Assembly: GCA_947429165.1 (NCBI GenBank)
Contig: CANEON010000001.1
Location: 237,021 to 301,020 of the forward strand
DNA from: an uncultured Mycoplasmataceae bacterium
GTDB taxonomy: Bacteria; Bacillota_I; Bacilli_A; Mycoplasmatales; Mycoplasmoidaceae
Direction of reading: 5' to 3'
DNA: 64,000 bases
Below are positions 1,157 through 36,300 of this stretch, in pieces. Made by a program: the position numbers and the translations under genes. The notes under the pieces are model-generated. The model ran no database searches. It was not told the origin of the DNA and saw nothing but the letters and a program-made list of their open reading frames with translations. Each line of letters starts with the position of its first letter. The first letter of the stretch is position 1.

Positions 1157-1809
1157 TTAGCAAACAGCAATAGTAATACTGAAGTTTAGAGTTTTAAAAT
1201 CTCCTGTAGGAGATAAAACCGCGTGGGGAACTCCTTGCTTGTCATATAATTTTAGGAGTAATTCGGCATCATAAGTGCTATACGAACCGTCCGACATAAC
1301 ATAGTCTGTAATTGAAAGCGAAGACAAGACACTATTACTAAAAATTGTTTTTGTAGTAAAAGTTAATCTTACATTATCATTATCATCTGCTGAAAGAGAT
1401 CAATTAATTCAATTAAAAAAATCAATATTTTGGTTTAATGAAGAAAATACAAGATCCATATTTTTAGATTGTGTTTGATCATCTTTTTTAAAAAGCATAA
1501 CGTTTTTAATTAAAAGATCATAAGAAATTTTTGTTTGATCAATGTTTGAAAATTTGCAAAGAGAACTTTCATCAGATATTAAAGTTAAATCTGTTCTGTA
1601 TCCAAGATAATTATTACTTGTTGTTCACAAAAAATAAAAATAAGTTTCTCCCTCTTTATTAGTAAAATATTTAGTGTCTAATTCGTCAACACTTCATTCT
1701 CCTGTTATTGGTTGGTTGTTATTTTTAGAACAAGATGTTAAGGCAAAACCAAAACAGCTACCTAACCCTAGAAATATACATGCCATACTTTTAAATACGT
1801 TTTTTTCAT
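1157..1809 (-). CDS. putative lipoprotein; the SD-preceded ATG is out of frame with the body (A7 tract after the start)
   Basis: AAAGGAGAAATT precedes the ATG at 1809. ATG+A7 then runs into TAG after 13 codons. The body frame (in-frame ATG at 1786) encodes MACIFLGLGSCFGFALTSCSKNN with a lipobox, continues across TGA codons and ends ...ITIAVC* at 1157. One extra A would give MKKNVFKSMACIFLGLGSCFGFALTSC. Confidence 0.55.
1800..1806 (-). repeat. poly(A)7 tract (T7 on + strand) immediately after the start codon
   Basis: Counted in the sequence: ...acgt|tttttt|cat. Confidence 0.7.
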
Positions 1810-1835
1810 AATTTCTCCTTTACGCATTGTTATAT

Positions 1836-3734
1836 TTATTTTATCTTAAAATCGTAAAATGCATTAATAATTTTGATTGTTTCTACCATCTCTTCTTTAT
1901 TCACATAACAAGATTGGATTCTTGTTTTTGTTCTATCTGATTTTAATAACATTAACCCATCACCATTGCCAAATAAGTTTAATGCTTTTGGCGAATTTAA
2001 GAATAATTTTGAAACATTTTCATCATCTGTTTTAAAAATAAAATATGAGGAAATATTTTTTTGTAACTCTTCGTTTCATAAATACGAATCAATCGTTTGA
2101 GCATATAAAATAACCTGAATTCCACACATTTTCGCTTCTCTGGATAATAATTCATTAAGAATCGCAGAATTGTTTGGTGTCTCACCTAAAAATTGATCAA
2201 CGTCAAATAACGCAATTAATACTTTACTTATTTTGTTATCTGGATTTTTTTGGTTATATGTATCAACATTAGAACAATGCGCCTTAGAAAGTAAAGTTTT
2301 TGTTTGTTTTAAATCTTCAAGAACGTTTGATAAACAAGTGTTTGTTTCGTTTTGACTAGAAGTTGGTGACGACAATAAATGAGTTAATCCAGAAAAAGAT
2401 TCAAATATTTTTTCTTCTTTGCATGAACACAATAATACTTTTAAATCATTTGGTGTATTTAAGAAAACGTAAGAAAGAATCATCGAAGAAACTTGCATAA
2501 TTGCACCACTACCAGGTTTACCGATTATCAAAGTTGAAGGACTAACATTAAAATCGTATAGTACATTGATTCCGCTGTATGTTGCACCTACTGCAGCCAT
2601 GCCAGAATGAACTGTTTTTTGTGTAGTTAATACATTTTTAATTGACACCCTTGAAGGATCTTTATTTAATACTTCTATCGTGATTTTAGAACCTTTAACA
2701 GAAAAGTTTATTTTTTCTGTTTTAAATAAATCAAACAAACCTTTCTTTAGATGAACTAATTTATTAATTTGTTCTTCATCTGAAAATTTATAAACATATT
2801 CACAATATAAAGGCATTACATTAGAAGTAACAAAAGCTAATCCTATGTTGTTATCTCTAATAAAGTCATTTAATTGCTTAATTGTCTTTGCAGATCTTTC
2901 GGTATTCTTGTGATAATTGTCTATACTTGTATCTGTTAAGAAAGATAATGGCGGAGTTGCTTGAACATTGTTGGCCGCTTTCATTTTTATAGAGTTCAAA
3001 TCAAAAATATTTACCTTTTTATCTTTTCTTGTTCCATTAAGTTCATCTTCTGGTTTCTTTTCATCAACATAAACTCCTCCAAGCGCATGAACAATTGATC
3101 GTTTTATCTTATTTAAAAACTTAATGTTCTTTACCCCAAACAAAACTAAAATTGCGGCAATTAATAGAACAACTTCAAAAATAAACAATGTTGACCATTG
3201 CATGATAAATGATAAACTTACAAAAAATTCTCCAATTAATCCACCAGTAATATTAGAGTTAATAAAATTAATAAACCAAAATTTAAAAGAATTTATTTTT
3301 AAATAATCTCCAAAGTAAATGTGATATTTGTATAGAGGATCAATAAAATTTTCGCCTATGTTTTGTTGAATATGATTTCCCGCCAATCACGAAGACGCAG
3401 ATGTCATAATAAAAATGAACAAAAACAAAAGTGTTTCAAATATCCACATCTTATGTGTGAAAAAAGTTTTCAAAATGCTCTTATTACACAATTTAAAAAT
3501 AAGTATTAGATATAGAAAAGAATAAACAAAATATTTAGAAACTCCAAATAAATATTCGAAGAATATCGAATCTAAATAACACCCTGTATACGGCAATCTA
3601 AATAGTGATATAGTCACTAAAATCATTAACATGCAACAAGTAAAAATTCTTGATGTTTTTCTTGCTCTGTTATAGTTGGCTAAAATACTAGAATTTACTT
3701 CGGATATGTCTTGGTTTGCTTTTTTAGTATCCAT
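1836..3734 (-). CDS. FtsK/SpoIIIE-family protein with N-terminal TM region and degenerate Walker A/B motifs
   Basis: Track ORFs 3387-3734 and 2076-3386 share a frame across TGA, and I read the tail down to TAA at 1836. FtsK-like blocks are present: STLIIGKPGSGAIMQVSSMILS, CGIQVILYAQT, FGNGDGLML. Walker A is GKPGSGAI rather than GxxGSGKS, and Walker B is FDVDQF rather than DE. Confidence 0.75.
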
Positions 3735-3742
3735 ATATACAA

Positions 3743-5428
3743 CTATTTTGAAAATATTATAGTTGTTATAACAAGTGGCTTTTTGCTAAATTTTTTGTCA
3801 AATTGTTTTCCTACAATTTTTCTAACAAACAATTTGTATTCTTTTACATCAAAAGTTTTAGCTGCAAGTTGTGCTTTTGCATATTCATTTAAAGATTTAA
3901 CAAATTCTTCATTTAATTGAGATAGTATTTGTTTGTTTGCATCTGTAATATTTAAAACACCAACAACATCAAAATTAAATTTAATAATTTCTTTGGTCTT
4001 ATTTGAAAGTAAAAGATTAGCTAGTACAACACCAGTTTCTTTCATTTGATCTCTTTCAAACATTGAACTTGTTTCGCCATCAAGTGAACCTTGAAAGTTT
4101 ATAAATTGCGGAGTTAACTTTACAAATTTCTTTGCAGATAATAATTGTGCGTTCTCAAATGTTACTTTGTCGCCGTTATCAAGAACTAATATTGAGTTCT
4201 TATTAATTCCCATAGATCAAGCGCACTTTTTGTATGCTTCAAAACTCATGTGTAATCCGTTTACTGGAATAATGTATTTTGGTTTAAAACAGTTGATTAA
4301 GAATTTGTGATCTTCATTTGAAGCTTTTAAAGGAAGAATTGTTTTTGGTAATTTATAAATTTGATTAATATTTGAACGGTATAAATTATCAATTAAGTTT
4401 GCTTCTGCTTTTTCATATCCAAACAAAGTGTTGTTTGCATAGACAAAATTGTCAGACGGTAACAATTGAATTTTTGGATCTTCTCCGTTAATTACTTTTT
4501 GTAATTTAACAAAATATTTTTCTAATGAATCAACAATTAATACAACCGCGTTCGGATTTTGTTCAAGTTGAGAGTCGTTGATGATTTTTAGATTCTTAAT
4601 AAATAGTTTTTTTGTTTCTTGTAAGTGTTTAAAAGTGTAAAAAAAGTTTTTACCGTAAATGCATATTGGTCTACCCATTGATGCACATGCACTAACAAGT
4701 GATAACATACGGTAAATTTCAAAATCATAGCATGACACCAACACTCTTGTATCAATGTGCTCTTGTAATATTCCAACAAAGTATTTAATAACATGAGCAT
4801 TTGGATAAGTAAAGCCAGTTGACTCTCCAACTAAACCAGAACCAACAATTAATGCAAGACATCTTGTTCCAAATAATTGAGAAATTTTCAAATAGTCATT
4901 TGGGAATAAATCGCCAATACTTGAATTTAAAACAAAATCATCAATATAAATAATTGCTCCGTCTTTTGTATTAAATACAAAACCTGTAGAATGAGGTGTA
5001 TATGAAGACACTTTGAACATCGTTACTGATGCTTTTCCTATTTGATTAGGTTTTAGTGTTTCAAGTGTTCTAATATTTAGGTTTAATGTTGTATTGGTGT
5101 TGTAGAAAAGATTTCTAAAATAAGTGATTATTATTGAAGCACTAATATCGTTTGTATAAATTGGAATATTAGGTAAAAGTTTATAAAGATATTGCAACCC
5201 ACCAAAATTAATGTAAGTTGCATTACCAATAAAAATACCTTTGATGGCATTTTTGTTATTAACTATTCATGAATAGTCAGGAATTATCTTCTTAATTCCA
5301 AGTGATGTTGATGTGGGCAAAGACACGCCGCAGTTTAAGATATAAATATCACCATCTATGGTTAAAGAATAACAAGGGTTTTGTTTTTCATCTAGTCCGC
5401 CAAAACCTAAAAAATCAATTTTTGACAT
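3743..5428 (-). CDS. RNase J-like MBL/beta-CASP fold protein lacking the HxHxDH metal motif
   Basis: ORFs 3743-4213 and 4217-5197 share a frame across TGA, and the N-terminus was read to the ATG at 5428. The N-terminus MSKIDFLGFGGLDE...IKGIFIGNATYINFGGLQYL aligns to the RNase J block ...GIFITHGHEDHIGG. The C-terminal PVNGL sits where HGE is expected. Confidence 0.7.
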
Positions 5429-5494
5429 AATAATATTAAAAGTATATTAAGATTGTTATTGCTCTTTATTATATAGAGTTTTTATAAATGCTAA

Positions 5495-6199
5495 TTATTT
5501 TTTAACTTTGTCGATTTGTTTGCTCTTTTTTGTAAAGAAGAAATCTGATTCCTTAATGTATAAGAAATTTTCTGCAATATTTAACGCATGATCAACATTT
5601 CTTTCAACGTGTTTAAAAATAATAATTGCTCCAGTTAAAATGTTTGCAATTTCTTTTGCTGTTTTTGAGTGAAGAATTTTAGATAATTCAACCATTGTGT
5701 TTGAATATTTATCTTGATATGCTCTTTGATATTTAACTGCCACTTCATATGTTTCAACAGCTTTTTTGTTCATTAAACAGTCTAATATTTTTTCAATGTA
5801 ATTAGAAGAGTCTTTTATTGAAGAAACCAATAGGTCATATATTTTGTTCCCAACTTTTTTATGAGTATAAAAGAATTTAGCGGTGCTCATAACATAGTCC
5901 GCCATTCTTTCTAAATCAGTTATTGAGTTTAATATAGCAATAATGAATCTTAAATGATTACCAACTGGTTGGTTTCTTGAAATTGCTCAAATTGAATCAT
6001 CTAATATTTCTGCTTCAAAATGATTTGATTGATCTTCTAATTCAAAAAATTTGTGTAGTTGTTCTTCAGAAATTGTTTCATCTGTTTGAAGAGTTTTATA
6101 TAAAGCTTTTCAAGAAAAAATTACATGTCTTGCGAATGTACGAAATTTTTCTAGTAATTCATTTTCTGAATCTTTTAATAATGAATAATTTGCAGCCAT
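5495..6199 (-). CDS. phoU: phosphate transport regulator PhoU
   Basis: ORF 5495-5905 extended upstream across TGA codons to the ATG at 6199. Two PhoU-like helical repeats (ERMADYV..., ERNVDHALNIAE). Located in the pst operon. Confidence 0.85.
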
Positions 6200-6200
6200 A

Positions 6201-6761
6201 TTATTTTTCCTTTCTGTCTCTTGGTTTCATAAAAATACCTACTGTATAGCATCCTAAAGAAAGCACATATAAAGCGGATGTTACAAACAACGTAATAATG
6301 CCAGATGTTGAATGTTTTATATCTAGTGAGTCTTCTGCTACAATCTCAAATATTCACGATAAATTGTTGTTTGGACCATTGATTGCTGTACTTGGAATAG
6401 CGGTTATTCCAATTAAAAAAATAGCAATAACAAAAATTAATAAAACATATAAAAACGTGTCCATTAAAGCTGGTTTTTGTTTTGTTTTTATATTTAAAGA
6501 TAGGTGTAATGCAACAAACAATATAGAAACAAAAATAAGGATGAAAGAAATAATTCCAAAAATATTAATTTTTCTTATATAGGCATCAGAACTAGATGAA
6601 TCAAATGCTAAAGTAAGGTCCCACATACCTTGACTATTCTTAAATGAAAGCGTGCTTAGATCTGAGAGATTTCTTCCTTGAAAAGTAGCAAAGGTTATAA
6701 AACAAAAACTAATAGTTAAAATAATTGCAGTTATTATTGATGTAATTTTAAATTTTTTCAT
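6201..6761 (-). CDS. multi-pass membrane protein, unknown function
   Basis: ORF 6354-6761 continues across TGA to TAA at 6201. Several hydrophobic helices. Tightly packed between the PQ-loop gene and phoU. Confidence 0.5.
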
Positions 6762-6762
6762 A

Positions 6763-7122
6763 TTATTTCCCTCCTTTTGATTCTCTAGCTAATTTTAAGC
6801 AATAGTCTTTTTCCGACATTCCTGCTTTTCTAGCACGATACATATAAATTAGTTTTATTGTTAATACACTTGCTGAAAGTATGAAACTAAAAATGTTAGC
6901 TATAGTTACTCCAATATATGTTCCTCATATATTTGGATTCAAACAAATGTTTGTAATTCCTTGAATTGTAAAACAAAGACTTCCAAAAGCCAAAATAGAA
7001 AACATTAACAAAGGAACTGAATAAGTGTCTTTTGTTTTAATAACTCTTATAAGTTGTGGTGATGAAAAGATAGCTATACAAATAGCCCCTAAATATCCTA
7101 ATACTGTTGCAAAAGTTTCCAT
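6763..7122 (-). CDS. small PQ-loop / SemiSWEET-like membrane protein
   Basis: ORF 6925-7122 continues across TGA to TAA at 6763. About 119 aa with 3 predicted TM helices and an SSPQLIRVIKTK PQ motif in the first helix. Confidence 0.5.
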
Positions 7123-7130
7123 GTTTTCTC

Positions 7131-8087
7131 CTATCCAATCTTTCCTGAAATATATTCTCTAGTTTTCTTATTATCAGGAGAAGTAAATATTTTCTTAGTT
7201 GTATTTTTTTCAATTAATCTTCCTTGATAAAAGAAAGCTGTATCATCACTAACTCTTTGTGCTTGCGCCATTGAGTGAGTAACGATGATAATGGTGTAGT
7301 CTTGTTTTAAATTTAGAACAAGTCTTTCAATTTTAGAAGTAGCAATTGGGTCAAGACCACTAGTAGGTTCATCCATTAATAAAACCTCTGGTTTTAATGC
7401 GATCGCTCTAGCAATACATAGTCTTTGTTGTTGACCACCAGATAATGAAGTTCCTAAATCATACAAGTTGTTCTTAACTTCATCTCATAATGCAGCACCT
7501 TTTAAAGATTCTTCGACTATTTGATCAAGTGCTTTTTTATCATTAATACCATGAGATCTAGGACCATATGCAACATTGTCATAAATACTCATAGGGAATG
7601 GGGAAGGTTTTTGGAAAATCATTCCAACACGTGTAGTTAATTCAAGGGTGTTAAGCTTAGGTGATTTTAAGTTTATACCGTCATCAAAGTAAATATTTCC
7701 CTCGCTATATGTGTTATCTATTTGGTCATTCATTCTATTTAAACAACGCAAGAAAGTAGATTTACCACATCCTGATGGACCAATAAATGCAGTTACTTTT
7801 TTACGAGCAATTGTAGTATTGATATCAATTAAAGCATGTTTGTTTTGATTTCTGTATCAGAAGTTAAAATTTTCAACTTCGAAAATGTTGTTTTTATCAA
7901 AGTTTTCATTTTTAGTTTCTAACTCTGATTTAAGTTTATTTTTTAAAGTCTTATAAATGGTTTTTTGGTTTTTATCAAGAAAAAGAAAAGACAGTGATGA
8001 AACCACTTTATTTTTTTCTAAAATTTTCTTTACTTTTTGTGCATCTTTTTGATCTTTATCAATAGATGTTTTCTTGTTTTCTGCCAT
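7131..8087 (-). CDS. pstB: phosphate ABC transporter ATP-binding protein PstB with N-terminal extension
   Basis: ORFs 7857-8087, 7485-7751 and 7131-7466 share one frame and are joined by TGA. Motifs: Walker [10 protein letters not shown], signature LSGGQQQRL, Walker [12 protein letters not shown], and the PstB-typical [17 protein letters not shown]. Confidence 0.9.
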
Positions 8088-10126
8088 TATATTGATTGAA
8101 TATAGTTATGTAATAATTGTATTTTATTAACAACAATATTGTTATTTTTATTTTTTGAAGTTTTTGAGAATAATTTGCGTTTTGTATTCTCTCCTGAAGT
8201 TGATGTTGGTTTTGAGTATTTCTTTTTAATTCTTTTTTGCTTCCAAACAAAGTAGTAAGGAATTAAAACGTGTGAAACCATGATAATTAATAAAACTAAA
8301 ATCATTGTGATGAATGCACACTCATACATTACAGATGTTCCTTGACTAATGTCTGCTGTGTAAATTTGATCATAAATTCTTGTTGTTAATGTTTGGCCTG
8401 CAGTATTTAAAGCAATAGATCCAGAAGAAGATAAGCCAGATGTTAAATATAAAGGCGCTGTTTCTGCTAAAATTCTTCCAATCGACAACACAACACTAGT
8501 TGTTATTCCTTGCAATGCTGTTGGTAAAACAATCTTTCTAATAGTCTCTCATTTCCCTGCACCAAGAGCCATTGAATTTGTTCTTAATTCTACTGGTACA
8601 GATTGTAAAGCTTGTTGAATAGTTCTGATAAATGTAGGAAGTATTACTATCAAAATAGTTAATGCTCCTGCAATTAAAGATTTTCCAGCACTGCCAGCCG
8701 AAGACATTCCACAAGTTTGGATAAAAAATATTAAACCAAACATACCAAACAAAATAGAAGGAGTTGCACCTAAAGAATCAATAAAGAATAATAGCACTTT
8801 TTTTGTTTTACCATTTTTAGCAAATTCATTTAAATAAATAGCTATTAATAGAGATAAAGGCAATCCTATTCCGATTGCTAAAACAATAATTAATAAAGTG
8901 TTAACAAATGCTTGTCCTGTTGTGTCTTTACCAAAAGAGAATGCAGAAGCATATCCGCTAGCAAGAGCAACACCACCATATCCTAAGATATCAATTAAAA
9001 TTCAAAATAAGAACGCCAATGTGATGATGATTGAAACTCATTCTCAAAACATTTTTCAACCTGTATAGAAATTAGTTAATAGTCTATTAGATTTAACTCT
9101 TACATAAAGATAGTTAGAAATATCTTTACCGTCATATTCTTTAATTCTGAAAAGTTTTTTTAGTCCTCTTTTGATTTGTGATGGAACATATAACAATCAT
9201 TCTCAAACCCTCTTTATAAATTGGTTATATTTTTTGTGTTTAGAAGATTTCTGTTTGCTTATTTTCATTACAACAGCATTCAAAATCATAATGAAAATAA
9301 ATAAAAAGATACCAAAAGCAAAAAGCAATCCTTGAAGTGCAGGGCCTCCACCTTCAGCAAACATATTTGCAGATATCAATGCACCAAGTGTTCTTAAGTT
9401 TGATGTTAATAATCCTCAGAATCCTTGATTAAAGGTGTCATTAAATCCTTGTGATTGAAGAATCATTGAAACTGCCATTGTTTCACCAATAGCTCTTGCT
9501 AAAGCAATAATGATTCCTACATAAATACTTCCTTTAACTTCTTTTTTTACTACTTTGTATATTGATCTGGTTCTTGTATTTCCTAAAACCATTGAAGCTG
9601 ATATTAAATCATTATTAGCTCCATCTAATGCATTGAGTGTTAATGATACTACTGTAGGCAATATCATGAAGATCAACATAATACCTGCGGTTAATAAACT
9701 GTATGTTGTATCTAAATTAAATATTTTTTTAACAATTAATCCTAATGATTCTGCAGCAAACAAACCGAATATAACTGAAGGGATATCAGCTAATAATTCA
9801 ATACCAACTCTTGTTACTTTTTTATATTTCTTTGGTAATCTATATTTAATAAATATTGCAGTTTTGATTCCGATTGGTCCTGCAAAAATAATAGCTATTA
9901 ATGAAATCAATATAGTCACGCAAAGTGGTAATCATATAGATGCTTTGTTGTTAGCTAAATCAAAAGTGGAAGTAAATAAAATATTTTGAATTCCATATTC
10001 TTTGAACCCAGGAATTGAGGCATAAATAATAAAAATAATTAAAGCGAAGAAAACTAAAGCAAAAACTCAAGATAATGCACAAGATAAACCTTTGGACACG
10101 TGGTCTTGATTGGTTTTTCTTGACAT
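8087..10126 (-). CDS. pstA: fused phosphate ABC transporter permease PstC-PstA
   Basis: ORFs 9416-9919, 8549-8863 and 8087-8515 share one frame. Start ATG at 10126 (MSRKTNQDHV...). Two permease halves, each with an EAA-like loop (SASMVLGNTRTRSIYKVV; NSMALGAGKW). Confidence 0.85.
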
Positions 10127-10151
10127 TAATTTTGAATAACCTGTTTTTTTC

Positions 10152-11351
10152 TTAAGCATATATAGCTCCAAAAACTTTTGCATTATCTCCAGAACGAGAT
10201 TTCATTAATTCATAATCAGATATTGCATAATTATCATTTAATTTCATTGAGTTTTTTTGCTGCTCACTTAAAACTGCAGCACCCATTGTTTTCCAAATTT
10301 CTTTTGTCTTGTCGTCATTTAATAAATAATCTTGTATAAATGCTATTTGTCCTTCATCATTGTCAAGAGAAGTCATTAAATTTAAAGGTCTACATCAATT
10401 GTATAAACTGTTTTGCATATTATCTACTGTATATGAATATGTAGGTGTTGTGCTGTCTTTTTTATATCCGAATATACCATAATGATTTTTTCTAATTAAA
10501 TCTTCGTTTTGAGCAATAAAACCAGATGATAGGTAAACAACAGAACCTGGTGTATTGCTTTTAGAAAACATATCTCATGCACGACTGTTGGCTTCATCTG
10601 TTTGAACTAATTTTCAATTACTGCCGTAATTACCAACTTTAAATGCATTTTGTGTCCTATCGCTTAATGTTTTAGAATCAAAAGATTGAAATCTAAAATA
10701 TTCATAAAATGAAGCAGCTGTTCCTGATGTTAAAGATCCACCGGTTCTTACATACGGAATCATTCTTGTATTAGATAAAGCGGTTTTTATCGAAGGATCG
10801 ATATATGAGCTTGCAAAATCTCCTAATGTAGGATATGAATTTTGATAGTCATCGTCTGAAAAACCCGAAAAAGCTTGATACAGTTTTTTAATTGTGTCGG
10901 GTGACACAGACAACATACTTGAGTTGTTGTCTGGAGAAAATAGCATATCGTCTGTTATTGAAGAATTTTTAGGCGGAATATAAACTAGACAAATAGCTTC
11001 TCATGCAACTGTATATGTTTTAATGTTTCTATCTGTCCATTTTTGTTTTAATTCGTTTTTTTCATCATTTACTGAATCAAACGGATTTTTAGAAGCGTTG
11101 CCTATGTTGGTAAATCCATCTGCTACTTGGTCTATGCCAAAACCAGAACCACCAGCATCAACTGTGATGTCAATAGATTTGTGATCTTTTAAATATTCTT
11201 TTGATAATTCTTCAACAAACGGTTTAACTCCCGATGAACCAACAGAAGTAATTGTTGTTTTGTTAGATCAATTTGTACTAAACCCTACTACAAATCCAAG
11301 CGGAATTAGACATGCGACTGATATTAAAGTGTTTTTTAGTCATCGCTTCAT
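10152..11351 (-). CDS. pstS: phosphate-binding protein PstS-like (probable lipoprotein)
   Basis: ORFs 10614-10946 and 10152-10376 are in frame and extend to the ATG at 11351 (MKRWLKNTLISVACLIP...). Motifs GSSGVKPF... and VDAGGSGFG are typical of PBP-type phosphate binders. Sits upstream of pstCA-pstB. Confidence 0.7.
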
Positions 11352-11398
11352 ATTAGTTTAGGTTAATTAATCTTTCGCACATATTATAAATATTATTA

Positions 11399-11995: not shown

Positions 11996-11997
11996 GA

Positions 11998-14542: not shown

Positions 14543-17500
14543 TTAACAAGTTATATAAAAGGTTTTGTAGTCACAGATTAATAAACCGTTTTGATCAGAA
14601 ATTACGTGTAATTTTCCACTCTTATCTCTAATTAACAATCCATATTGTAATTTTGGCTCGTCACTCATATTGTCGTTATGCAAAGTTCAAGTGCTGTGCT
14701 CAGCTATTTTTGGGTGATTCATTAAATAATCATCTAATCAAACATTTGGTTTCATGCTAAATTGAATTCCATCATCACCAATTTTAGTTATTTTAATTCC
14801 TCAATCATCTAAATTAACAGGAGTAAGCCCTGGTGCATATGTAATGTCATCTACATAGAATGACTTACCGGTGCTTGAATCTCTAACATTAATATGATAA
14901 AAGTTTAAGTATACAAACACATCTTCAGGTTGGGTATCAGCAGTGATTTCGTTACTAAATATGGTTATGCCGAATTCATCAGTGTCATTTTCTCCTAATG
15001 AAAAATCTCATTCTGGTTCCTCTGGTCCATTTAACTCTGTTCTTGTAGCAACATAAGGATCGTTTTCAGTAATATACAACTCTAAATCCATAGTTGCAAC
15101 AATTGAACTATCAACAGTTGAGGTAGCTTTTAAAGTGAAACGAATGTGGGTTGTGTTCGCAACAGCATTTCAAGAAAGAATGTTGTTTTCAATATATAAA
15201 ACATCTTCCACGTCTGGATTTAATATATCTCATTTAACATTTGTTGATGGGTTATTCCCTTGAGCTGAAACAGCTAATGCATTTTTGTATGATCCAGCCT
15301 TATTTTCAACACCTAAAATTTGGTTAGAACCAGGTCAGATAATAGAAATAGAAATTGGTTTAATTTCGATGTTCAATGCAAAATGTTTTACAGAACGAAT
15401 CTGAGTATTTTTTTTGCATGTAGCAACAACATCAAATGTTGCTCTTGTGTATGAACTTTGAGTAGAAATGGCGTTCCATGTTATTTGATTTGAACTATTA
15501 ATGGAAATTTCAACACCTGGCACACTAGTATTTTCTATAGATCAATTTACTTCATCGCTTGCATCAGAAGGGTGAAGAGTTGCAGAAAGTGTCTCGGTTG
15601 TTTTACCTGCTTTCCCTACTTCAGCACCATAAATTTCAGATATATCATTAACGTAATCTGTAGATCCTGTTCAGTTTATATCTAAACGTTCAACTGGAGG
15701 GTAATCTAAAACAAGAGTTATATCATTTCTTGTTTGAGAAATACTTCATTTTGCACTAGTTGCTTTAATTGATAATGTAATGTTTCCTGCTTTTGAAATA
15801 GGATTTCATACAATGTTTTTAGATACAGGATCAATTGATATTGAATTTGCAGGAGCAGATTCACCATCATCATAAGTAGCACTTATGATTGTTCATGTAG
15901 CATCATCTATTTCTTTTGATCCTTCAGGATTTGAAGAAACAGAAAGAGATTGACCTTGAGAATAACCTGATTTGTTGATTGTTCCATTTATAGATGTTGA
16001 ACCATTTCATTCTATTTGCATTCCAGTTGGGTCAGGACGATCAAGTACCAAAGTTAAATCTATTGTTCTAGAAATTGATGAATCTTCAATTGATGTAGCT
16101 TTTACTTTAAACGGATAAGTTCCTGGATTAGCAAAACTTGATCATTTTATACTTTTGTGTGTGTTAATCACTGAATCTACAAGCGAAATTGTCGGTCCGT
16201 TTTTAGGTTGTTCGATAATCGAAAAATCTACTTTTTGTTCAGCGTTATCTGGATGAATTTGCGCTACTAAAGGTTTTGAATAAGTCTCTTCTTTGTTTAT
16301 AAGACCATTAATTGTGGTAGCACCATCTTGTAGTCCTAAATCCATACTTGTTGGATTAGCAGTGTCAAAATCAATTTGAACATTGTTTTTTGTAACCGTT
16401 TTTGTTGATCCGTCTTCTCCTGTTCATGATGCTTTTACAACAAGCGGTGCAACATGTGGTCTAATTTCTTGAGTTTGTTTTTTAAATGTTCAACAAATTT
16501 GTTTTTGGTCATTAATAGATAAATCTAAATATTGTGAATATGTACTTCCTGAAGCGTGCTCCACAGTATAAGTTACATCTGCGGATGAATATGATGGTTT
16601 AAAAACACTGATTAAATGTCCAGATGATGAACCATTTTCATTAACTGTACCATTCATAATAATAGTTGAAGATGCATCAGAATTTTCACTTCAACCTATT
16701 ACGACATTTGTAGGTTTTGCCGTTTTAAAAGAAATTGAAAATTGAGCACTAGTTACTGTTAAAGATGGTGTTTTAGTAGAAGTTGCTTTTACTTTGAATG
16801 AAACTACATCAACAGATGAATCTGTTGGAACATCTCAACTAATTTGTTTAGAAGCATTAATGGTTACATTAGCATCAGATGACTTTTCTATAATATCGTA
16901 ATTGAAGTCTGCCGGATTAAAATCTGCATAAGTTGGATCAGGACTTACCGAAAATGATTCAGTTGTTGTTCCTGCAACTCCTTTTGTTCCTGAAATATTG
17001 TATTGACCATTTCAATTTAGTCTTATAGATTTTGGTTGAGGTTTATTTAAAGTTAATGAAAAGCCTGTTATATCTTTAGATAATGTTGTTCCTTCTACTT
17101 CTGCACGAACAGTGAATGTTAAGTTACTAATGGGGTGTTATTTTCATATTTCTTTCATTGTATTTTTCCCTCTGCAGAAACACTTAAAATTTGATCAACT
17201 AATGACTGTTGTGATGTATTTGTAGCTATAAGTTGATAATTAACTTTAGTGTTTGGATCAATGTATGAAGATGGCTCTACACTTGAGGTTAAATTTCCAA
17301 GACTTTCTCCAGCTTTATAAATTTCACCAACGTACGCTTTGTCAGAACCGTTGTAGCTAGCTGTTAAAGTTTCAGGTTGAGCATATCCAATATTTAATGT
17401 AAAAGACAAGTTTGCTGGTGGAACTGATCTATAACCTCTAAAATAAGCTGAAACGTAAAAATTGTATTGACCTTTAGCGTGTTGTGATCATTGAATTTTT

Positions 17501-18740
17501 CCTTCGTTTGTTACAGAAATTCATGATTTCATTTTTGTAGGCATTATTTGGTACGAAACATCATCTCCAGTTGCTATAGCATCTGTTGGTGTAACGGTCG
17601 GTTGTAATACACCGGTAGATTCTCCACCTTCTTTGTTACTTCCATATAATACTGTAGATCCTTCAGAATATGCTAAAGAGATTGATTGTGGATCAACCTT
17701 TTCTAGAACTAACGCGAATTGTTTAGAAGAAGATATGGAAGTGTTTTTATATTTAGCAGTAACAGTGAAAGAGTAAGTGCCTTCTGTCGATTTTGCATCT
17801 CAAGAAATTTGTCCATTCGTTACATGAATAAAGTCTTGTCCTGAAACAGATCATTCAACTTCTGGAGTTTTAGCATAACTAGGAGTAGGTGACGCAATTA
17901 AACTATCAATAGATGATTCAGCTTTATTTACTTTTCCATATAAAGCAATATCACCCATAGTGTACATTGGGTCTGTTCAAGTTAGATTTAATGCTGTTGG
18001 ATCAGGTTTATTTAGCTTTAATCTAAAATTTTGAATATCTCTTGCTCTGCCGTCCGCACTTGTTGCAGATAGTTTAAAATTAATTGTTTTCTCTGCTGAA
18101 ACAGATCTCCAAGCAATATATTGTTTTTCATTTATTGTCTTTAAATAAACAGCTGAATCTGTCGCATCATACAATTCATATGTAACATTTTGTTGGGCTT
18201 CTGTAGGTAAAACTGTTGCTGTTAAAGGTTTTGATTCATAATAACCTTCTTGATTTATATACCCACCAATTTCGTGAATTTGGTTTGTACCATCTCAATT
18301 TAACGAAACATTTGTAGCGTGAGCATAATCAATTAAAAGAATAAAATCTTTTGATGCTGATAATGATGGTTTAACTTTAGAGGTCGCAGTTACTGTAAAA
18401 TTAATTTTTTACCTTGATGACAAGTATTAGGAATTGTTGACCAACAAATACGATTATGTGAATCAACATTAAAACTTACATCTGTTGAAGTTGTAGTTAT
18501 TGCATAATTAACTTCTTGTGGTTTATCTGCTGGATAAACAGAAACACTTAATGGTTGAGCACTTCATGAACCAGAAGAAAGCAAATTACCTTTAATTTCT
18601 GTAGAACCCTCTCAATTAAATTTGATTTCAGTTGGGCCGTTGTCTTTTGATCCGCAAGATGTTGAAGTTAAAATAGCTGTTGAAGAGCCTAGAACAAACG
18701 CTCCTGCTGCCATCATTTTAATTATTTTTTTTGATTTCAT
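14543..18740 (-). pseudogene. giant surface lipoprotein with about 13 tandem Ig-like (Big_2-like) repeats, interrupted by two homopolymer frameshifts
   Basis: Start MKSKKIIKMMAAGAFVLGSSTAILTSTSCGSK (lipobox). Repeats of about 95-105 aa share the pattern ...G.I.W......G.Y.F.V.A.... Track ORFs 17977-18174 and 17155-17409 (frame 0) and 16142-16345 and 15335-15523 (frame 1) are all repeat units. The frame changes are pinned to T6 18405-18410 and G4 17132-17135. The protein ends ...KTFYITC*. Confidence 0.7.
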
Positions 18741-25236: not shown

Positions 25237-25266
25237 AAAAAAATCCGCTTAATTGCGGATTTTTTA
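25237..25266. terminator. bidirectional rho-independent terminator between purM and the convergent Ig-like gene
   Basis: aaaaaaatccgc-ttaatt-gcggattttttt: 8-bp GC-containing stem flanked by an A-run and a T-run. Confidence 0.6.
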
Positions 25267-28200: not shown

Positions 28201-29415
28201 TAAGTCAGGGGAACAATCAGCAGCATTTTTTATTACACCAGTACAATATCCTTCTGATGTTTTTTCTGTATTTACTGGTAAATCAAATGTACAACCTTCT
28301 GATGATGGTTTGTTTCAAGTTCATTCTATCCCTGTCGGTTGTTGATAATTTAATGAAAGAGTAAATGTTTTGGTAGCTTGTAAATTAAATTGATCACATT
28401 CAGCTTTAATTGTAAAACTGTAATTTTGGATATATGAATGTGAATCTCACGATATAACGCCATTGTTAACACGAATAAAACTTGCAGCATCACCCATAAC
28501 ACTTCATCTAATAGAGTCTGCAACTGGTTGTTTTGCATAACTTGGGCTAGAAACTAACGTTAGTCTGTTTGTATCAGATCCAGCTTTATTAATAGACCCA
28601 GTTAAACTAGTTGAAGTTCCTGAATAATTAATTTGTATAGATTGTGGTTGTGGAAGATCTAGAGTTAATTGAAAATATTCCTTATCTGTCATTCCACTAT
28701 CTGTGTGTGTTGCAACAACTTGGAAAGTAACAACTTTTTTTACAGAAGAGTTAACAGCGTTTCAACCAACATATTTTTTTCCGTTTTTTTCAACGATTTT
28801 AACTATCCCAGTTTCACTTTCACTACCAGAAAGTATATTTATAGTTGAACTTTGGTCAGCATCGGCTGGTAAAATCTCTGTTTCTAGAGCTTGTGCTTCG
28901 TAAACACCAGCTTGATGAACAAAACCTGATATTTTGTGAACTCCTTTTTCTGGTCACTTTAAATCAAAGGTTGTTGGGCTTGGTTTGTGGAGATTTAAGA
29001 TAAATGATAGTGTTTCAGACTTTACATCTGGATAATTAACTGAATATGCGTATACATCAAAATGAATAATTAAATTTGGGTCGCTTGGAAGTTTACTTCA
29101 AGAAATAATTCCGTCATCATTTACACTAAATTTAACATTTACATTTTCAAGAACATCAAAATGATAGGTAACATTCTTATCAACATCCCCTTCTCCATCT
29201 ATATTGCATATTAAATGACCATATTGGTAATTACCTTCTCTATTAATTGTTCCTGGTAACTTTTTTTCTTGTGATCCGCTTCACGATAAATCAATTTTTG
29301 ATGGTTTTGTTAATTTTGAACCAACTAATGTAGAATAGATAATTCCACCAACAGCAACACTCATAACAAGAGTAATGCTTGATATTCATCCGACTAATTT
29401 TTTTCAATTTTTCAT
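25267..29415 (-). CDS. giant (1382 aa) membrane-anchored surface protein with about 12 tandem Ig-like (Big_2-like) repeats
   Basis: Start MKNWKKLVGWISSITLVMSVAVGGIIYSTLVG (signal anchor, no lipobox). Track ORFs 28504-28692, 27175-27390, 26518-26757 and 26263-26508 are all in the start frame. Same repeat pattern as 14543-18740. Ends ...APAVNVTC*. Confidence 0.75.
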
Positions 29416-29467
29416 ATTCATTTTCCTCAATATATATAACACTATAACACTATTTTTTAAAGGGGAC

Positions 29468-29496
29468 AAAAAAATCCACATTTAGTGGATTTTTGT
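29468..29496 (-). terminator. rho-independent terminator after the YiiX-like lipoprotein gene
   Basis: aaaaatccac-attta-gtggattttt hairpin followed by a T-run on the minus strand. Confidence 0.55.
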
Positions 29497-29509
29497 TTTG
29501 CTGTTTTAA

Positions 29510-30784
29510 TTACTTAAGGAAGTTTCAGCCAATAATTGCTTTTGCATTATTGTAGTAAAGAATTTCTCAAGGTAAAATTCCCGGAATGTCAGCTGCATAG
29601 TAATCATTAGATTGAATATCAATACCTTGATTCATGTAACCTGCTCATACTAATTCTGAACAATATCAAGCGCCAGCATCTGCATCTACATCTTCACTTA
29701 AGAAAATAGGAATATTGTAATTTTTACCTAATTGTGATTCACAGAATTGTGTTGCAGCTTCTATTTGTTCGTCGCTTGCATCACTAATGCGAAGAACTGT
29801 CATTTGATCTTTAACCATTCTTACATCATCTAATAAACCATATGAAACACCAAATTGGTTAGCTTCAACAACACGTAAATATTGAACTACTTAATCTGTT
29901 CCTTGAACTTTTGCATTGTATCATCCATCAACAATAGCACAGTGTCCAGAGTAGTGACCACCTAAAGCAAAGCCTTGAGCAGAGAATACTACATCACCAC
30001 GTTTAACGTTATCTCATGCATATTTATTTGTATATGTTGGGGTATCTAATAATTCATATGTACCTTGAATTCTTTCACCATTTTTGTGGTTAAAGTCTAA
30101 TCCAGTATAGTAAGTGTCACTATATACACTGAAAATTAATTCTCAAGCTTTTTCTTTAGCTTGTTCACCTTCACCAAATAATGGGTATAAGATTCCTTCA
30201 AAAATATCTTGTAATGATCAGTTGTTCTTAGCATATTTTTCTAAATCTATTTGTTTAGTTAAAATGCCTTCTCACAAATTAATAAAGTGATTAATTTTTT
30301 CTTCACCAAACAAGAATTGAACAAATTGGTTTTCGCATACTTTATTAATAGCATTCATGATGTCATCATGAAATAAAACAAGAACTTCTTGAAAAATTTC
30401 TAATGGATCTTGTCATTCTTCAACATCTGGAGTTTTTGAAGTGATTGTTTGTAAAACGGGTTTAATATTTTGTTCAAGTAAATTAAACAATTGTTGAGCA
30501 TATCCTTTGTATACTTGGGGAACATTTCTATTAGCAGAAATAACTTCTACAAGTTGAGCAGCTACAGTTTCAAATTGGTCTGCCATTTTCATAACAACAT
30601 CTTTTACGTCGTATGGTTTGTAATCAGTAACACTTTTTTTGTTAGCAAAATTACTATTCAAAACTACTTGTTTGTTTTGATCATTAGTTGTTTTGCTGTA
30701 ATTAATAGCAGTAGCAGGAATTGCTGCTGCAATACCTAATCCGCAAGATGCTAAAAGAATACTTTTAAAGATTTTTTTATTCAT
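29510..30784 (-). pseudogene. lipoprotein with C-terminal permuted papain-like amidase (YaeF/YiiX, C92-like) domain, interrupted by an in-frame TAA
   Basis: MNKKIFKSILLASCGLG lipobox. The C-terminal region GDVVFSAQ...GHCAIVDG...VVEANQFGVSYG...QLGKNYNIPIF...WYCSELVWAGY matches the YiiX-type order of motifs. In-frame TAA at 29891-29893, checked codon by codon; 126 codons follow in the same frame to TAA at 29510. Confidence 0.65.
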
Positions 30785-30910
30785 ATTATTTCCTCTCTTT
30801 TGTATTTCTACTCTTATATTAACACTAATTCGAAAAAATAAAGTAACTTTTATTATTTTTTTATTACTTCTTATAACTTATAAATATTATTTATAATTTA
30901 TCTATTAACA

Positions 30911-31507
30911 ATGAAAAATATTGCAGTTTTTGTCTCTGGTGGTGGAACTAATTTACAAGCAACCATCAATGACGCTAAGAAATCTAAATTTTATAAAGTT
31001 TCATTAGTAATTTCTAATAAAGATAATGCTTATGGGCTAGTTAGAGCTAAAAAGGCTAACATACCTAATATATGTATAAAAAGCAAAGATGTATCGAAAA
31101 TATTAACAACATTATCTAAATATAAGATTGATTACATTGTATTGGCTGGTTACTTAGCAATAGTGGATCCTAAAATTATTAAAAAATATCCAAACAAGAT
31201 TTTAAATATCCACCCTTCATTAATTCCTTCTTTCTGTGGTCCGGGCATGTATGGAATTCATGTGCATGAAGCAGTAATTAAATCTGGAGTTAAAACGAGT
31301 GGATGCACAACTCACTTTGTAAACGAAAGGGTTGATGGTGGTGCAATAATTATGCAAAAAACAGTCCCTGTATATTATGAAGACACACCTGAAATTCTTC
31401 AAAAACGAATATTAAAATATGAACATCAAATATTGGTTAAATCAATCAACTTGTTAGTAACAAATAAATTAAAGGTAATAAACGGAAGGACAAAAGTATT
31501 AAAGTAA
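30911..31507 (+). CDS. purN: GAR formyltransferase
   Basis: 198 aa with [14 protein letters not shown]...[12 protein letters not shown]....HEA... motifs. Confidence 0.92.
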
Positions 31508-31509
31508 TT

Positions 31510-33015
31510 ATGAAAAAAAGAGCATTAATAAGTGTATTCAAAAAAGATAAAGTATTAGAACTTGCAAAGTTCTTAATTTCTCATGATGTTGAAGTTGTTT
31601 CAACTGGTGGAACTTTTAAATATTTAAAAGAAAACAATGTACCGGTAACAGAAATTAGTGACATTACTAATTTCCCCGAAATGTTAGATGGTAGAGTAAA
31701 AACTTTACATCCTAATGTTCATGGCGGAATTTTAGCCATTAGAGATAACAAGCAACATATGAACACAGTTAATAAACATAATATTGGTTTAATTGATTAT
31801 GTTGTTGTTAACTTATATCCTTTCTTTGAAAAAGTTAAGGAAAACTTAACTTTTGAACAAAAAGTTGAGTTTATTGATATCGGTGGCCCAACCATGTTAA
31901 GATCTGCAGCCAAAAACTTTAAAGATGTAACTGTTATTTGTGATCCTGATGATTACGAATTAGTAATGAATGAAATCGCTAACAATGGATCAACTTCAAT
32001 TGAAACAAGACAAATGTTAGCATCTAAGGTATTTAATTTAACAACTGCATATGATGCAGCTATTTGCAATTTCTTATCTAAAGACGAATTCCCTAAATAT
32101 CTTTCTGTTTCATATGTTAAGAAGCAACCTCTAAGATATGGTGAAAACCCTCATCAATCTGCTTGCTTCTACGAAGATACCGTAAGAAAAGGAGCGATGA
32201 ATAGTTTTGAAATTCTTAACGGTAAACAACTATCATATAACAATTTCAAGGATGTTGATATTGCTTGAAAATCAGTTTGTGAATTTGAACCAAGTGAATA
32301 TGCGTGTTGTGCATTAAAACACAATACCCCTTGTGGTTTTGCTATTGGTTCATCTGTATATGATTCATATATGAAAGCATATAATGTTGACTCTACTTCA
32401 ATCTTTGGTGGTATTGTTGCATTCAATAACACCGTTACAGCAGATGTTGCTACAGAAATGTCTAAAATCTTTTTAGAAGTAATTTGTGCTCCTGAATATG
32501 AACCAGAAGCTCTTGAAATTTTAAGAAAGAAAAAGAATTTAAGAGTTCTTAAATTTCACTCTAAACCAACTAACACTCATGCTTATATTAGTGTTGATGG
32601 TGGAATTATGGTTCAAAGTGAAGACTTAAATTCAAAAGAAGAATACAAAGTTGTAACTAAACTAGCACCAACTGAAGAACAATTGAAAAATCTTAAGTTT
32701 GCTATGAAAGTAGTTAAATACGTTAAATCAAATGCTATTGTTGTTGCAAATAATGGTGTTGCTTGTGGTATTGGTGGTGGACAAGTTAATAGAATTTGAC
32801 CAACTCAAGATGCTCTAAGACGTGGTAAGGGTGCAACCGTATTAGCATCTGATGCTTTCTTCCCATTTAGAGACGTTGTTGATACATGTGCTAAATACGG
32901 AATTAAGGCAATTATCCAACCAGGCGGTTCATTAAGAGACCAAGAATCAATTGATGCATGTAATGAACACGGTATTGCAATGATATTTACAGGAGTAAGA
33001 CACTTTAAACACTAA
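31510..33015 (+). CDS. purH: bifunctional AICAR formyltransferase / IMP cyclohydrolase
   Basis: [13 protein letters not shown]...STGGT...[14 protein letters not shown] and C-terminal [11 protein letters not shown]. Pieces are in frame across TGA at 32266 and 32797. Confidence 0.93.
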
Positions 33016-33017
33016 TT

Positions 33018-34265
33018 ATGAAAATATTATTAATAGGATCAGGCGGTCGTGAACATGCATTAGCATGGAAGATGGCCCAAAATAAAAAAGTTACAAAAAT
33101 TTATGTTGCTCCAGGAAATGCTGGGACAGCTACAGAAAATAAATGTGAGAATGTAGCTTTACATTCTAACAGCGAATATGTTAAGTTTGCTAAAGCAAAC
33201 AAAATTGATTTAACTGTTGTTGGCCCTGAAGTTCCGTTAGTAGATGGAGTGGTAGATTTATTTAAGAAAAATAAGTTAAAAATCTTTGGACCAAATAAAA
33301 AAGCAGCTCAATTAGAAGGTAGTAAAGTTTTTGCAAAGAAATTTATGCAAAAACACAATATTCCTACTGCAAAGTTTGGTAGTTTTACAAATCCAAAATC
33401 TGCTATTAAATATTTAAAAGAGAAATGCGATTTTCCAATAGTTATTAAAGCTGATGGACTAGCAGCTGGTAAAGGTGTAGAGATTTGTCCTAATTTAAAA
33501 TCGGCTATCAACTGTATTAATGAATTTATGGTTAAAAATATCTTTAAAACAGCAGGTAGTAAAGTTGTTATTGAAGAATTCTTAGAAGGGCCAGAAGCTT
33601 CTATTATTTGTATTACTGATGGTAATACAATATATCCTTTTATTTCTTCAAAAGATCATAAACAAGTATTTGATAACGATAAAGGTCCTAATACTGGTGG
33701 TATGGGCGCCATATGTCCAAACCCTTATGTAACAAAATCTGTTTTGAACGATTTTGTCAAACAAATAATGTTACCAACATTAAATGGTCTTAAAAAAGAC
33801 AAGATTGATTTTATGGGTTTTATTTTCTTTGGAATTATGATTACAAAGAAAGGACCTAAACTTCTTGAATACAATGTAAGAATGGGCGATCCTGAAACAG
33901 AATCTATTTTACCATTGCTTAAGAATGATTTAGTTGATGTATTTAATAAAGCGCTAAGTAAAAAATTAAAAGATGTTAAATTATCTTGAGAAAAGAAAGC
34001 ATCAATTAATGTTGTTTTATGTTCTAAAGGTTATCCAAAAAAAGCAGAAACAGGAAAAGAGATTAAGATTAAAAAATTAAAAAATTCTAAAATTTTCTTT
34101 GCAGGTACTAAACTTGAAAATAAAAAACTAATCACAAGTGGAGGAAGAGTTTTATCTGTTGTTTCTACAGGAAAAACTTTATCTGAAGCTACAAAAAAAG
34201 TTTATGCTGACATTAAGAACATAAACTTTTTTGGAATGCATTATCGTAAAGATATTGATAAATAA
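33018..34265 (+). CDS. purD: GAR synthetase
   Basis: MKILLIGSGGREHALAWK...VIKADGLAAGKGV...NVRMGDPETE. Continues across TGA at 33987 to TAA at 34265. Confidence 0.93.
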
Positions 34266-34345
34266 AATTTTAAATTGTTACAAATTAAGGTATTCACTTT
34301 ATATGCAGGTTTCTAAATGAATTTAAAATTTTATAATAAATTCCA

Positions 34346-36300
34346 TTAGGACTTAGCAGTTCAATCGTTGTCGTTTATGAAACTACATTTTTCTTTAAGT
34401 CAATCTAATAAATTTTGTGAACTAACTGAGCTATTTAAAGATTCAACTTTTCCTGTTGTTGCATTTTCATTAAAACATCATCGAGAATTAATCGTTACTG
34501 CGAAAGAAGAAGGTATATCTCAAGCAATATAGTTCAATAACGGATTTTCACTAAATGCAAAACCACCAATATAATTTAATTTTCTTGGAAGAATTACAGA
34601 GGTTAATGATTGATTTTCCGAAAAGGAATAACTACCAATTGATGTTAAATTAACACAATTTGACAAATCAGCAGAAATTAATCCTGTACGCATAAAAGAA
34701 TAATCATCAAGTGATGTTAAACTTTGTGGAAGATTTATAGTTTTCAATGAGGTACAATCAGTAAAAACAAAAGAATGAATCGTTTTTAAATTATTAGGTA
34801 ATTTAACATCGGATAATAACGTACATCCTGAGAAGGCGTGTGTATAAATTGCAGTTAAATTATTACAATTTGATAAATCAACAGAAGCTAATGAAGTGCA
34901 TGAGTCAAATGCATATTGCCCAGTAATTTCAGTGAAACTACTTGGAAATATTACAGAAGTTAGAGACTGGCATTTATAGAAAGCGTATCCACCAATTGTA
35001 GAACAAACTGAACCTTCGGCAAAAGTTAATTTTGTAATAAATGATGGAATAGTTGATTCTCAATTTTTATAAAAAGCACCATCATCAATACTTGTAACAT
35101 TTGCTGGGATTTCCATTGTGTCAGATAATCTATATGCACTTGGATTGGCTAAAAATCCAGCAGTAAATCCTTTTAATACATTGTTTTCAATAATATAAAC
35201 ATCATCTGGTAATTCAGGATCTGGTAATCAACTTTCTGGCAATCCACCATTATTTACTAAATATTGAAGTAAATCTACACCATCATATTCACTAGAGCTG
35301 GTTACGACAACTGTTCCTTTAGAAGAAACACGTAAGAAAGAAGAATTAACTAGACTAGTGTTGCCATCTCAAGCATCTCATGTAATACTATTTAAATTAG
35401 GGCAATCTGAAAAAGTGTTATAACTTAAAGATGTCAAACTACTTGGTAAAGATATTGAAGTTAATGAGTTACAAAATCTAAAAGCTTGTTGTCCAATTGA
35501 AGTTAAATTAATTGCATTTTCAAGATCAACAGAAGTTGATAATAGTGGACAATGACTAAAAGCTGAATTTTTAATTTTGGTTAAACCTGTGCATTCTGAA
35601 AAGTTGACAGAAGTTAATTGGTCACAATAGGTAAAAGCTTGTGCTCCGATTATTTTTAAACTACTTGGTAAAGTTACTGAACTTAATGTTGAACAATTAC
35701 CAAAAGCAAAACCATTAATTGAATCTAAAATAGCACAATTTGATAAGTTAGCTGAAGATAATTTTATGCACGCAGTAAAAGCATCTTCACCAATTGAAGT
35801 CAACTTAATTGCATTTGAAAAATCAACTGAAGTTAATGTAGAACATTCTTCAAAAGCAGAATCTTGAATTGTTATTAAAGCACTTGGTAATTTTACAGAA
35901 GTTAATGAAGATGATCTGAATGTATCATTACCAATTGAAGAACAATTAGACCCATCAGCAAAAGTTAATTTTGTAATAAATGATGGAATAGTTGTCTTGT
36001 ATTCTGTATCATCATAAAAAGCAAACCCATTAATACTTGTTACATTAGCTGGGATTTGCATAGTGTCACACATGTCATAAGCAGTTGGATTAGCCAAAAA
36101 TTCTTTAGTGAAACCCATCAAAACATTGTTTTCAATAATGTAAACACTTTTTGGCAAAACATTTGGATCAACCGGTTCATCTCCACCATTTTTTTCTAAA
36201 ACAGAATAAATTATTCCGCCTACGCCAACTGCAAGTGTAGCTATTATTCCACTACATAATACAATCAAATTTAGTAATTTCTTGTTTAACTTTTTTTCAT
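34346..36300 (-). CDS. BspA-type leucine-rich-repeat surface protein with internal two-module duplication; the ATG is out of frame (A7 tract)
   Basis: Track ORFs 35378-36268 and 34520-34747 share a frame, and I walked the whole stretch codon by codon across TGA. There are two modules, each starting VYIIENNVL.GFT..FLANP.AY...M.IPANVTSI followed by LRR_5-like repeats (C.SLTSV.LPSSL..IG..AF). ATG(36300)+A7 hits TAA after 4 codons; A8 would give MKKKLNKKLLNLIVLCSG.... The only in-frame start as read is the TTG at 36268. Confidence 0.75.
36291..36297 (-). repeat. poly(A)7 tract (T7 on + strand) immediately after the start codon of the LRR gene
   Basis: Counted in the block tttttttcat (36291-36300). 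Confidence 0.75.

Follow-up and report, generated by a model that had tools for sequence, protein, structure and literature searches.

Frameshifted starts in two surface-protein genes of an uncultured mycoplasma are probably one-base lesions fixed in the strain

Introduction

Homopolymer frameshifts in mycoplasma surface genes have been known as a class of mechanism since the 1990s. In a stretch of 64,000 nucleotides from an uncultured Mycoplasmataceae bacterium (assembly GCA_947429165.1, contig CANEON010000001.1, positions 237,021 to 301,020 of the forward strand; hereafter called the window), a lipoprotein gene and a gene encoding a leucine-rich repeat (LRR) protein raise the question of whether such a mechanism is at work. 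In both genes, an ATG is directly followed by a run of seven A (A7) and stands out of frame with the long open reading frame (ORF) behind it. A first-pass annotation of the window had taken the two tracts as candidate phase-variation switches. The best-supported reading, to which we assign a probability of roughly 0.55, is that one-base deletions have become fixed in the strain and silence or cripple two accessory surface-protein genes.

Results

Start of the lipoprotein gene

The source genome (709.6 kb on 7 contigs, 29% GC) reads TGA as tryptophan. The 5' end of the lipoprotein gene comprises the following elements:

1157-1786, minus strand: lipoprotein ORF, 209 amino acids (aa) as called, MACIFLGLGSCFGFALTSC followed by SKNNN, with the lipobox LTSC
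1784-1786, minus strand: in-frame ATG inside the gene, at codon 9 of the ancestral protein; start chosen by the gene callers, apparently from a lineage-specific ATA to ATG change
1800-1806, minus strand: A7 tract directly after the ancestral ATG (T7 on the plus strand), A8 in in-frame orthologues
1807-1809, minus strand: ancestral ATG (CAT on the plus strand), at which the orthologues P0003 and P0004 start
1815-1820, minus strand: Shine-Dalgarno-like AAGGAG, conserved in the alignment of relatives

Read from the ATG at 1807-1809, the A7 frame gives MKKTYLKVWHVYF and ends with TAG at 1770-1768 after 13 codons; the 209-codon ORF lies one base out of register and is otherwise fully open. The AAGGAG motif stands 5 nt upstream of this ATG, exactly as the first-pass annotation had it, and the proposal that the upstream ATGs of both genes are the ancestral starts was borne out by intact orthologues. 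A7 was present in the window and in four independent assemblies. A8 was found in three assemblies (L006, L007 and L008) which represent two lineages with ~95% nucleotide identity to the window, and their proteins begin with MKKNVFKSIAC..., the N-terminus that had been predicted for an A8 tract. Codon 9 is ATG in every A7 assembly and ATA in every A8 assembly. On this comparison, the lesion is evidently a contraction from A8 to A7 and the internal ATG at 1786 is evidently a novelty of the lineage. As judged by eye, the signal peptide of the orthologues, MKKNVFKSIACIFLGLGSCFSFALTSC followed by S, combines a charged N-region with a hydrophobic core, and its lipobox ends in Cys; the called ORF of the window has kept the hydrophobic core and the LTSC lipobox and has lost the charged N-region. 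The in-frame tract ATG AAT A7 that had been noted at another lipoprotein gene was located at 30784-30772 (minus strand), where it heads a 297-aa lipoprotein ORF.

The lipoprotein of the window has also changed in sequence. Its branch carries 14.5 nonsynonymous versus 0.5 synonymous changes, as compared with 25:13 on the other two branches, and the pairwise ratio of nonsynonymous to synonymous substitution rates was 1.1-1.2 versus 0.58; in addition, there is an 18-nt deletion. This substitution excess may reflect relaxed constraint or diversifying selection, between which the data cannot separate. Homologues of the lipoprotein were detected in 0 of 40 relatives examined from GTDB, and a search of genome contigs with the lipoprotein gave no match. 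Pattern scans of JGI metagenomes, allowing A6-A10 at the start of the lipoprotein gene and at that of a third gene described below, gave no match either.

Start and promoter region of the LRR gene

At the second site, the following elements were found:

34346-36268, minus strand: BspA-type LRR surface-protein ORF, 640 aa if read from TTG 36268, the earliest start in frame (Pfam LRR_5)
36291-36297, minus strand: A7 tract after the ancestral ATG (T7 on the plus strand), apparently formed when an Asn codon lost its C (or T)
36298-36300, minus strand: ancestral ATG (CAT on the plus strand); homologues begin with MNKKLNKK...
36320-36345, minus strand: degenerate remnant, A7-G-ACTAAA, of a promoter poly(A) spacer, ~11 nt shorter than the spacer of the orthologues

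From the ancestral ATG the sequence reads ATG AAA AAA AGT TAA, with the stop at 36288-36286 after 4 codons, and the 640-codon ORF, otherwise fully open, is again one base out of register. The out-of-frame position of ATG+A7 on the minus strand, as first described for the two genes, is thus confirmed at both. The LRR product keeps an N-terminal hydrophobic membrane anchor and matches PF13306 (LRR_5) in five stretches with E = 1.5e-98 and 325.9 bits (cut-off 27.7). The gene order malic enzyme - LRR - purD is common to the window and the orthologues. These syntenic orthologues and one paralogue-like gene start with ATG AAC AAG/AAA AAG TTA AAT (MNKKLNKK...), and the LRR paralogues in the source genome start with ATG AAT AAA AAA. 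Since the relatives carry an interrupted run, the A7 of the LRR gene arose, as far as the alignment tells, when the Asn codon lost its third base, and the ancestral start is evidently this interrupted run and not A8. The N-terminus that had been predicted for the LRR protein therefore stands only in part: homologues do begin with MNKKLNKKLLNLI..., but the family starts with MNKK... and not with MKKK.... Likewise, the view that both genes carry the same kind of tract did not hold, because the LRR relatives read ATG AAC/AAT AAR AAR, so that A8 is not the natural ON state.

Upstream of the start, the alignment and promoter scans of L012 and L013 show that the LRR orthologues have an A15-A22 run as spacer between -35-like and -10-like hexamers, the element of which only the degenerate remnant was found in the window. 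A promoter scan of the window at the LRR gene, on the strand of the gene, revealed no promoter-like site. The LRR gene thus probably bears a second, independent lesion, in its expression signals.

Runs of A14-A22 between -35-like and -10-like hexamers were seen at L011:1440-1470, L013:1440-1465 and L012:1452-1479 and, in the source genome, at C1:3209-3223, C1:23365-23379 and C1:43806-43821. The genes 20-40 nt downstream of these runs encode proteins with a signal peptide or a membrane anchor; the LRR orthologues are among them. Such promoter spacers, which resemble those of Vlp genes, are better candidates for true phase variation than the start-proximal A7 tracts.

Tract lengths within the strain

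The assemblies compared with the window (ERZ14499241, SRR18439540, SRR12464015, ERZ13641601 and ERZ14499255) are 99.8-100% identical to its genome, which indicates one near-clonal strain seen in several samples. Their contig names are of SPAdes or Logan style. Coverage was low (~4-10x), and the comparison is one of consensus sequences. The closest named relatives are metagenome-assembled genomes labelled uncultured Mycoplasmataceae or Mycoplasmatales, one of them from a mouse-gut catalogue.

The lipoprotein tract was A7 in 12 of 12 same-clone contigs (protein P0001 on 10 of them, plus the near-identical P0002 and P0005) and the LRR tract in 3 of 3 (P0006); the start of the LRR gene was identical in two further assemblies. 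Length heterogeneity at the consensus level, beneath which minority alleles are out of reach, amounted to 0 of 12 contigs for the lipoprotein gene and 0 of 3 for the LRR gene. The expected variability in length was therefore not seen; instead, A7 was uniform at the consensus level in all 12 + 3 contigs, the very outcome that the first-pass annotation had said would speak against a switch. Tract length follows lineage, together with many single-nucleotide polymorphisms. A search of the protein collection for an in-frame (ON) variant of the strain found none for either gene. The gene callers start the lipoprotein at MAC... and the LRR protein at TTG, and P0001, P0002 and P0006 are each the sole member of their cluster.

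An undercall of a true in-frame tract by assembly or sequencing was considered and rejected. Homopolymers are classic error sites and the coverage is low, but independent short-read assemblies from at least five samples agree on the length, A8 was called correctly in the relatives, the data are of Illumina type and the housekeeping genes of the window around both sites are intact. An error of this kind has a next to negligible probability, and both A7 states are, to judge from this agreement, real DNA.

The neighbouring acyltransferase gene

The gene downstream of the lipoprotein gene is a pseudogene:

53-1153, minus strand: Acyl_transf_3 pseudogene adjoining the lipoprotein gene, split into three frames

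Its lesions are a contraction from A8 to A7 at 827-833 and an expansion from T7 to T8 at 344-351; furthermore, there is a 15-nt tandem duplication near 1058-1087. The gene is intact and encodes 361 aa in the A8 strains L007 and L008, and the same lesions were found in the independent assembly L003. Because there are two frameshifts, they cannot be one switch; rather, they demonstrate that homopolymer changes of +/-1 reach fixation in the lipoprotein/acyltransferase cassette. In species-level relatives the cassette is missing and FtsK is directly followed by the RNase P RNA gene, and the cassette is evidently accessory. MutS was looked for in the source genome and was not detectable, which suggests that homopolymer indels go uncorrected.

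A third start-proximal tract

We scanned the genome for ATG codons that are followed by at least five A and stand out of frame with an ORF of 100 aa or more, leaving aside ORFs that continue upstream. The scan returned just three sites: the lipoprotein site, the LRR site and C1:110278 (minus strand), which lies outside the window:

C1:110271-110278 (locus L014:1971-1978), minus strand: third tract, ATG+A8 behind AGGAGG, in the gene of a 581-aa BspA-LRR lipoprotein

Here, ATG+A8 is one base out of frame with the 581-aa ORF; in a sister lineage, which is 90-94% identical, the tract is an in-frame A7 and the protein (P0127) is full-length. The proteins of both lineages fall into one 90% cluster, the 581-aa member of which is that of the sister lineage. 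Within the strain, the length of the tract was invariant in 5 of 5 same-clone contigs. By comparison, the four assemblies reveal, inside each lineage, a one-unit difference in an (AT)9-10 repeat located ~90 nt upstream of the gene; a truly unstable repeat can therefore show at the consensus level. The position of the tracts at the starts is by itself not statistically significant, since they are among only 2 to 4 runs of at least 7 per gene and both searches were aimed at starts. In two attempts at an unbiased genome-wide census of internal homopolymer frameshifts, any signal was masked by antisense open frames and ordinary boundaries between genes.

Other repeats and genes

A large gene for an immunoglobulin (Ig)-like lipoprotein (18740-14546, minus strand, start MKSKKIIKMMAAGAFVLGSSTAILTSTSC) consists of three frames of 116, 429 and 864 codons, with an A6 run (~18393-18408) and a short G/C run (~17122-17137) at the frame junctions; an intact orthologue was sought among the relatives, and none close enough was found. 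Outside the window, a G8 run at C2:43373-43380 (plus strand) lies inside the type I restriction-modification methylase motif GKSGG...YTPQEV. The methylase frame is broken at this run, a length change of one would join open frames of 207 and 323 codons, and a second G8 run was seen at C2:44937; the gene is a classic candidate for a phase-variable restriction-modification system. In the window, a G8 run at 45005-45012 (minus strand) is in frame (PLGGGA) within the intact 362-aa ORF of a polytopic membrane protein (44779-45867). A G46 run at the end of contig C4 (C4:17758-17803) is a two-colour Illumina artefact and not biology. The purine-biosynthesis genes purH and purD are intact at 31510-34265 (plus strand), which is unusual in a mollicute genome of 0.7 Mb.

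Discussion

In both genes the reading frame is disrupted relative to intact orthologues, as in a pseudogene, and neither ORF has a second frameshift. We favour the explanation that each start suffered a one-base deletion that became fixed in one near-clonal strain of this gut bacterium. In the lipoprotein gene, this would have been a slippage-type contraction from A8 to A7 in the run of Lys codons that encodes the charged N-terminus of the signal peptide; in the LRR gene, ATG AAY AAA AAG would have lost the third, non-A base of its Asn codon, leaving A7. Ribosomes starting at the ancestral ATGs would terminate after 13 and 4 codons, respectively, and both genes would be silenced or strongly attenuated, either as strain-level OFF alleles or as early pseudogenes. 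Any residual product would have to come from downstream codons, the new ATG at 1786 or the TTG at 36268, and would be made without the Lys-rich N-region of the signal sequence. The frameshifts in Acyl_transf_3, the nonsynonymous excess of the lipoprotein and the collapsed promoter spacer of the LRR gene all point to decay or to alleles locked in the OFF state, and we infer that expression has been lost and that the loss is practically irreversible. The third start-proximal tract, the Ig-like lipoprotein gene split over three frames, the accessory status of the cassette and the missing MutS fit the same picture. The OFF alleles may belong to a broader process in which uncorrected homopolymer indels erode accessory surface genes, and such fixed lesions look like ordinary events for this kind of bacterium.

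Several observations weigh against this explanation. Both ORFs are fully open past the 5' lesion, as in a reversible OFF state, although this is also expected of a recent lesion. All three start-proximal out-of-frame tracts (3/3) lie in genes for secreted proteins, and at the third gene, lineages that are 90-94% identical have in-frame and out-of-frame lengths between them. A surface lipoprotein gene with A7/A8 at its 5' end is precisely what is known from Vaa of M. hominis (PMC524362), and consensus assemblies of ~5-10x coverage cannot reveal minority ON alleles. In addition, the nonsynonymous excess could reflect diversifying selection on an expressed antigen, and the change from ATA to ATG suggests that expression was rescued and not lost.

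Some of these points lead to reversible phase variation of the Vaa type, in which slipped-strand mispairing would convert A7 (OFF) into A8 (ON) and back at ~1e-3 to 1e-4 per generation, OFF cells being dominant. Tract position and length classes match those of Vaa (PMC524362); relatives have A8 where the lipoprotein gene of the window has A7, and the sister lineage has A7 where the third gene of the strain has A8. Beyond the starts the ORFs are intact, the lipoprotein gene keeps a strong Shine-Dalgarno-like site, mismatch repair is lacking and all three cases are surface proteins. However, tract length follows lineage and was invariant in 12, 3 and 5 same-clone contigs while the (AT)n repeat varies, the LRR tract stems from the loss of a non-A base in a run that relatives keep interrupted, the adjoining Acyl_transf_3 gene carries two independent frameshifts and the promoter spacer of the LRR gene has collapsed. 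We regard reversible switching as possible, yet unlikely. The proposal of the first-pass annotation is supported in part: the A7/A8 difference between strains at the lipoprotein gene speaks for it; length variation within the strain was not seen, and there are signs of decay nearby. In a broader form of the idea, the A14-A22 promoter spacers found at paralogous genes and the three A7/A8 tracts next to starts would make up one contingency repertoire that switches BspA-like adhesins and lipoproteins in a clade of uncultured gut Mycoplasmataceae, the clone being all-OFF and the ATG at 1786 serving as a leaky bypass. This is rather doubtful; if true, variation of the Vaa/Vlp type would reach further than before, into uncultured commensal mollicutes and BspA-type LRR proteins.

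The alleles may also still be expressed as they are. With relocated start codons, translation would continue from ATG 1786 and TTG 36268 with truncated signal sequences, possibly by initiation following termination of the short upstream ORFs, whose ends are 16-18 nt away. The in-frame ATG occurs in all A7 assemblies and in no A8 assembly, the hydrophobic core and the LTSC lipobox of the lipoprotein and the membrane anchor of the LRR protein remain, and all gene callers accept the downstream starts. On the other hand, neither of these starts is preceded by a Shine-Dalgarno-like sequence, export would have to do without the Lys-rich N-region that normally assists it, an AT-rich genome contains many TTG codons by chance, a chance in-frame start in the stretch has, by rough estimate, a likelihood of ~5-10% at ~5% divergence, and the promoter of the LRR gene appears defective; relocation is thus improbable. 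A-runs are known slippery sites, as in dnaX or in the rescue of poly(A) frameshifts in endosymbionts, and an in-frame product could therefore also arise by recoding, through slippage of RNA polymerase on A7 (+1 A) or a -1 slip of tRNA-Lys on AAA AAA A. As read from the sequence, a -1 shift on the run does restore the orthologous frame, but no stable downstream structure was found at the three tracts in comparison with shuffled controls (z = +0.78, -0.12 and +1.38), so that the conserved combination of slippery run and stimulatory structure that marks a programmed -1 frameshift site was not found at the tracts. Moreover, 7 nt is short for efficient transcriptional slippage and the proteins are encoded in a single frame in relatives, which makes recoding very improbable. 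Fixed one-base deletions remain the explanation that we prefer.

How do the two starts compare with known systems? In-silico screens for phase variation use a between-strain difference in tract length as signature. The Vaa adhesin of M. hominis has a poly(A) tract in the 5' coding region with A8 as ON and A7 or A9 as OFF state, as reported by Zhang & Wise (1997) and summarised in PMC524362. For Vaa, clonal lineages have been shown to switch, at 1e-3 to 1e-4. What the genes of the window share with Vaa is a short run, A7/A8, within the first few codons of a surface (lipo)protein gene, a one-base change that sets the frame and a genome without mismatch repair. At both sites, the length of a 5' homopolymer sets the reading frame; both lengths occur at the same tract in close relatives (~95% identity) for the lipoprotein gene but not for the LRR gene. 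Unlike in Vaa, no change in length was seen within the clone, the only differences being those between strains ~5% apart; at the LRR gene, relatives do not share the homopolymer, and neither protein is related to Vaa.

The P78 lipoprotein of M. fermentans, said to have been studied by Theiss and Wise in 1997, reportedly carries a poly(A) frameshift in its N-terminal coding region. It resembles our case in having a localised A-run frameshift near a lipoprotein signal peptide, while, as in the comparison with Vaa, our case gave no sign of reversibility at the consensus level. Homopolymer-frameshift pseudogenes are reportedly found in reduced, repair-poor genomes, with rescue by polymerase slippage in endosymbionts, in work said to be by Tamas and colleagues from 2008. 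As in those pseudogenes, +/-1 changes in A/T runs are the main inactivating lesion, neighbouring accessory genes carry several lesions and constraint may be relaxed; unlike in them, the tracts are shorter (7-8) than those rescued by slippage and each of the two genes has a single lesion. The Vlp proteins of M. hyorhinis are switched at the promoter by a poly(A) spacer between -35 and -10. The LRR orthologues and three surface-protein genes of the source genome, with A14-A22 between -35-like and -10-like hexamers, are similar to this; the element is distinct from the start-proximal A7 tracts, however, and the spacer has degenerated in the LRR gene of the window. The LRR product belongs to the BspA-type LRR family (PF13306), a membership that says nothing on switching.

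For annotation, both genes should carry a frameshift label at the ancestral start; the called starts (MAC... and the TTG of the LRR gene) are secondary, and MNKK... takes the place of MKKK... as the natural N-terminus of the LRR family. The finding is a new example, in an uncultured mollicute, of a known kind of lesion and opens no new question. It illustrates that the strains of this one gut mycoplasma differ in which surface proteins are readable, via one-base changes in runs of Lys codons, and in a repair-poor genome such changes are the expected raw material for antigenic differences between strains.

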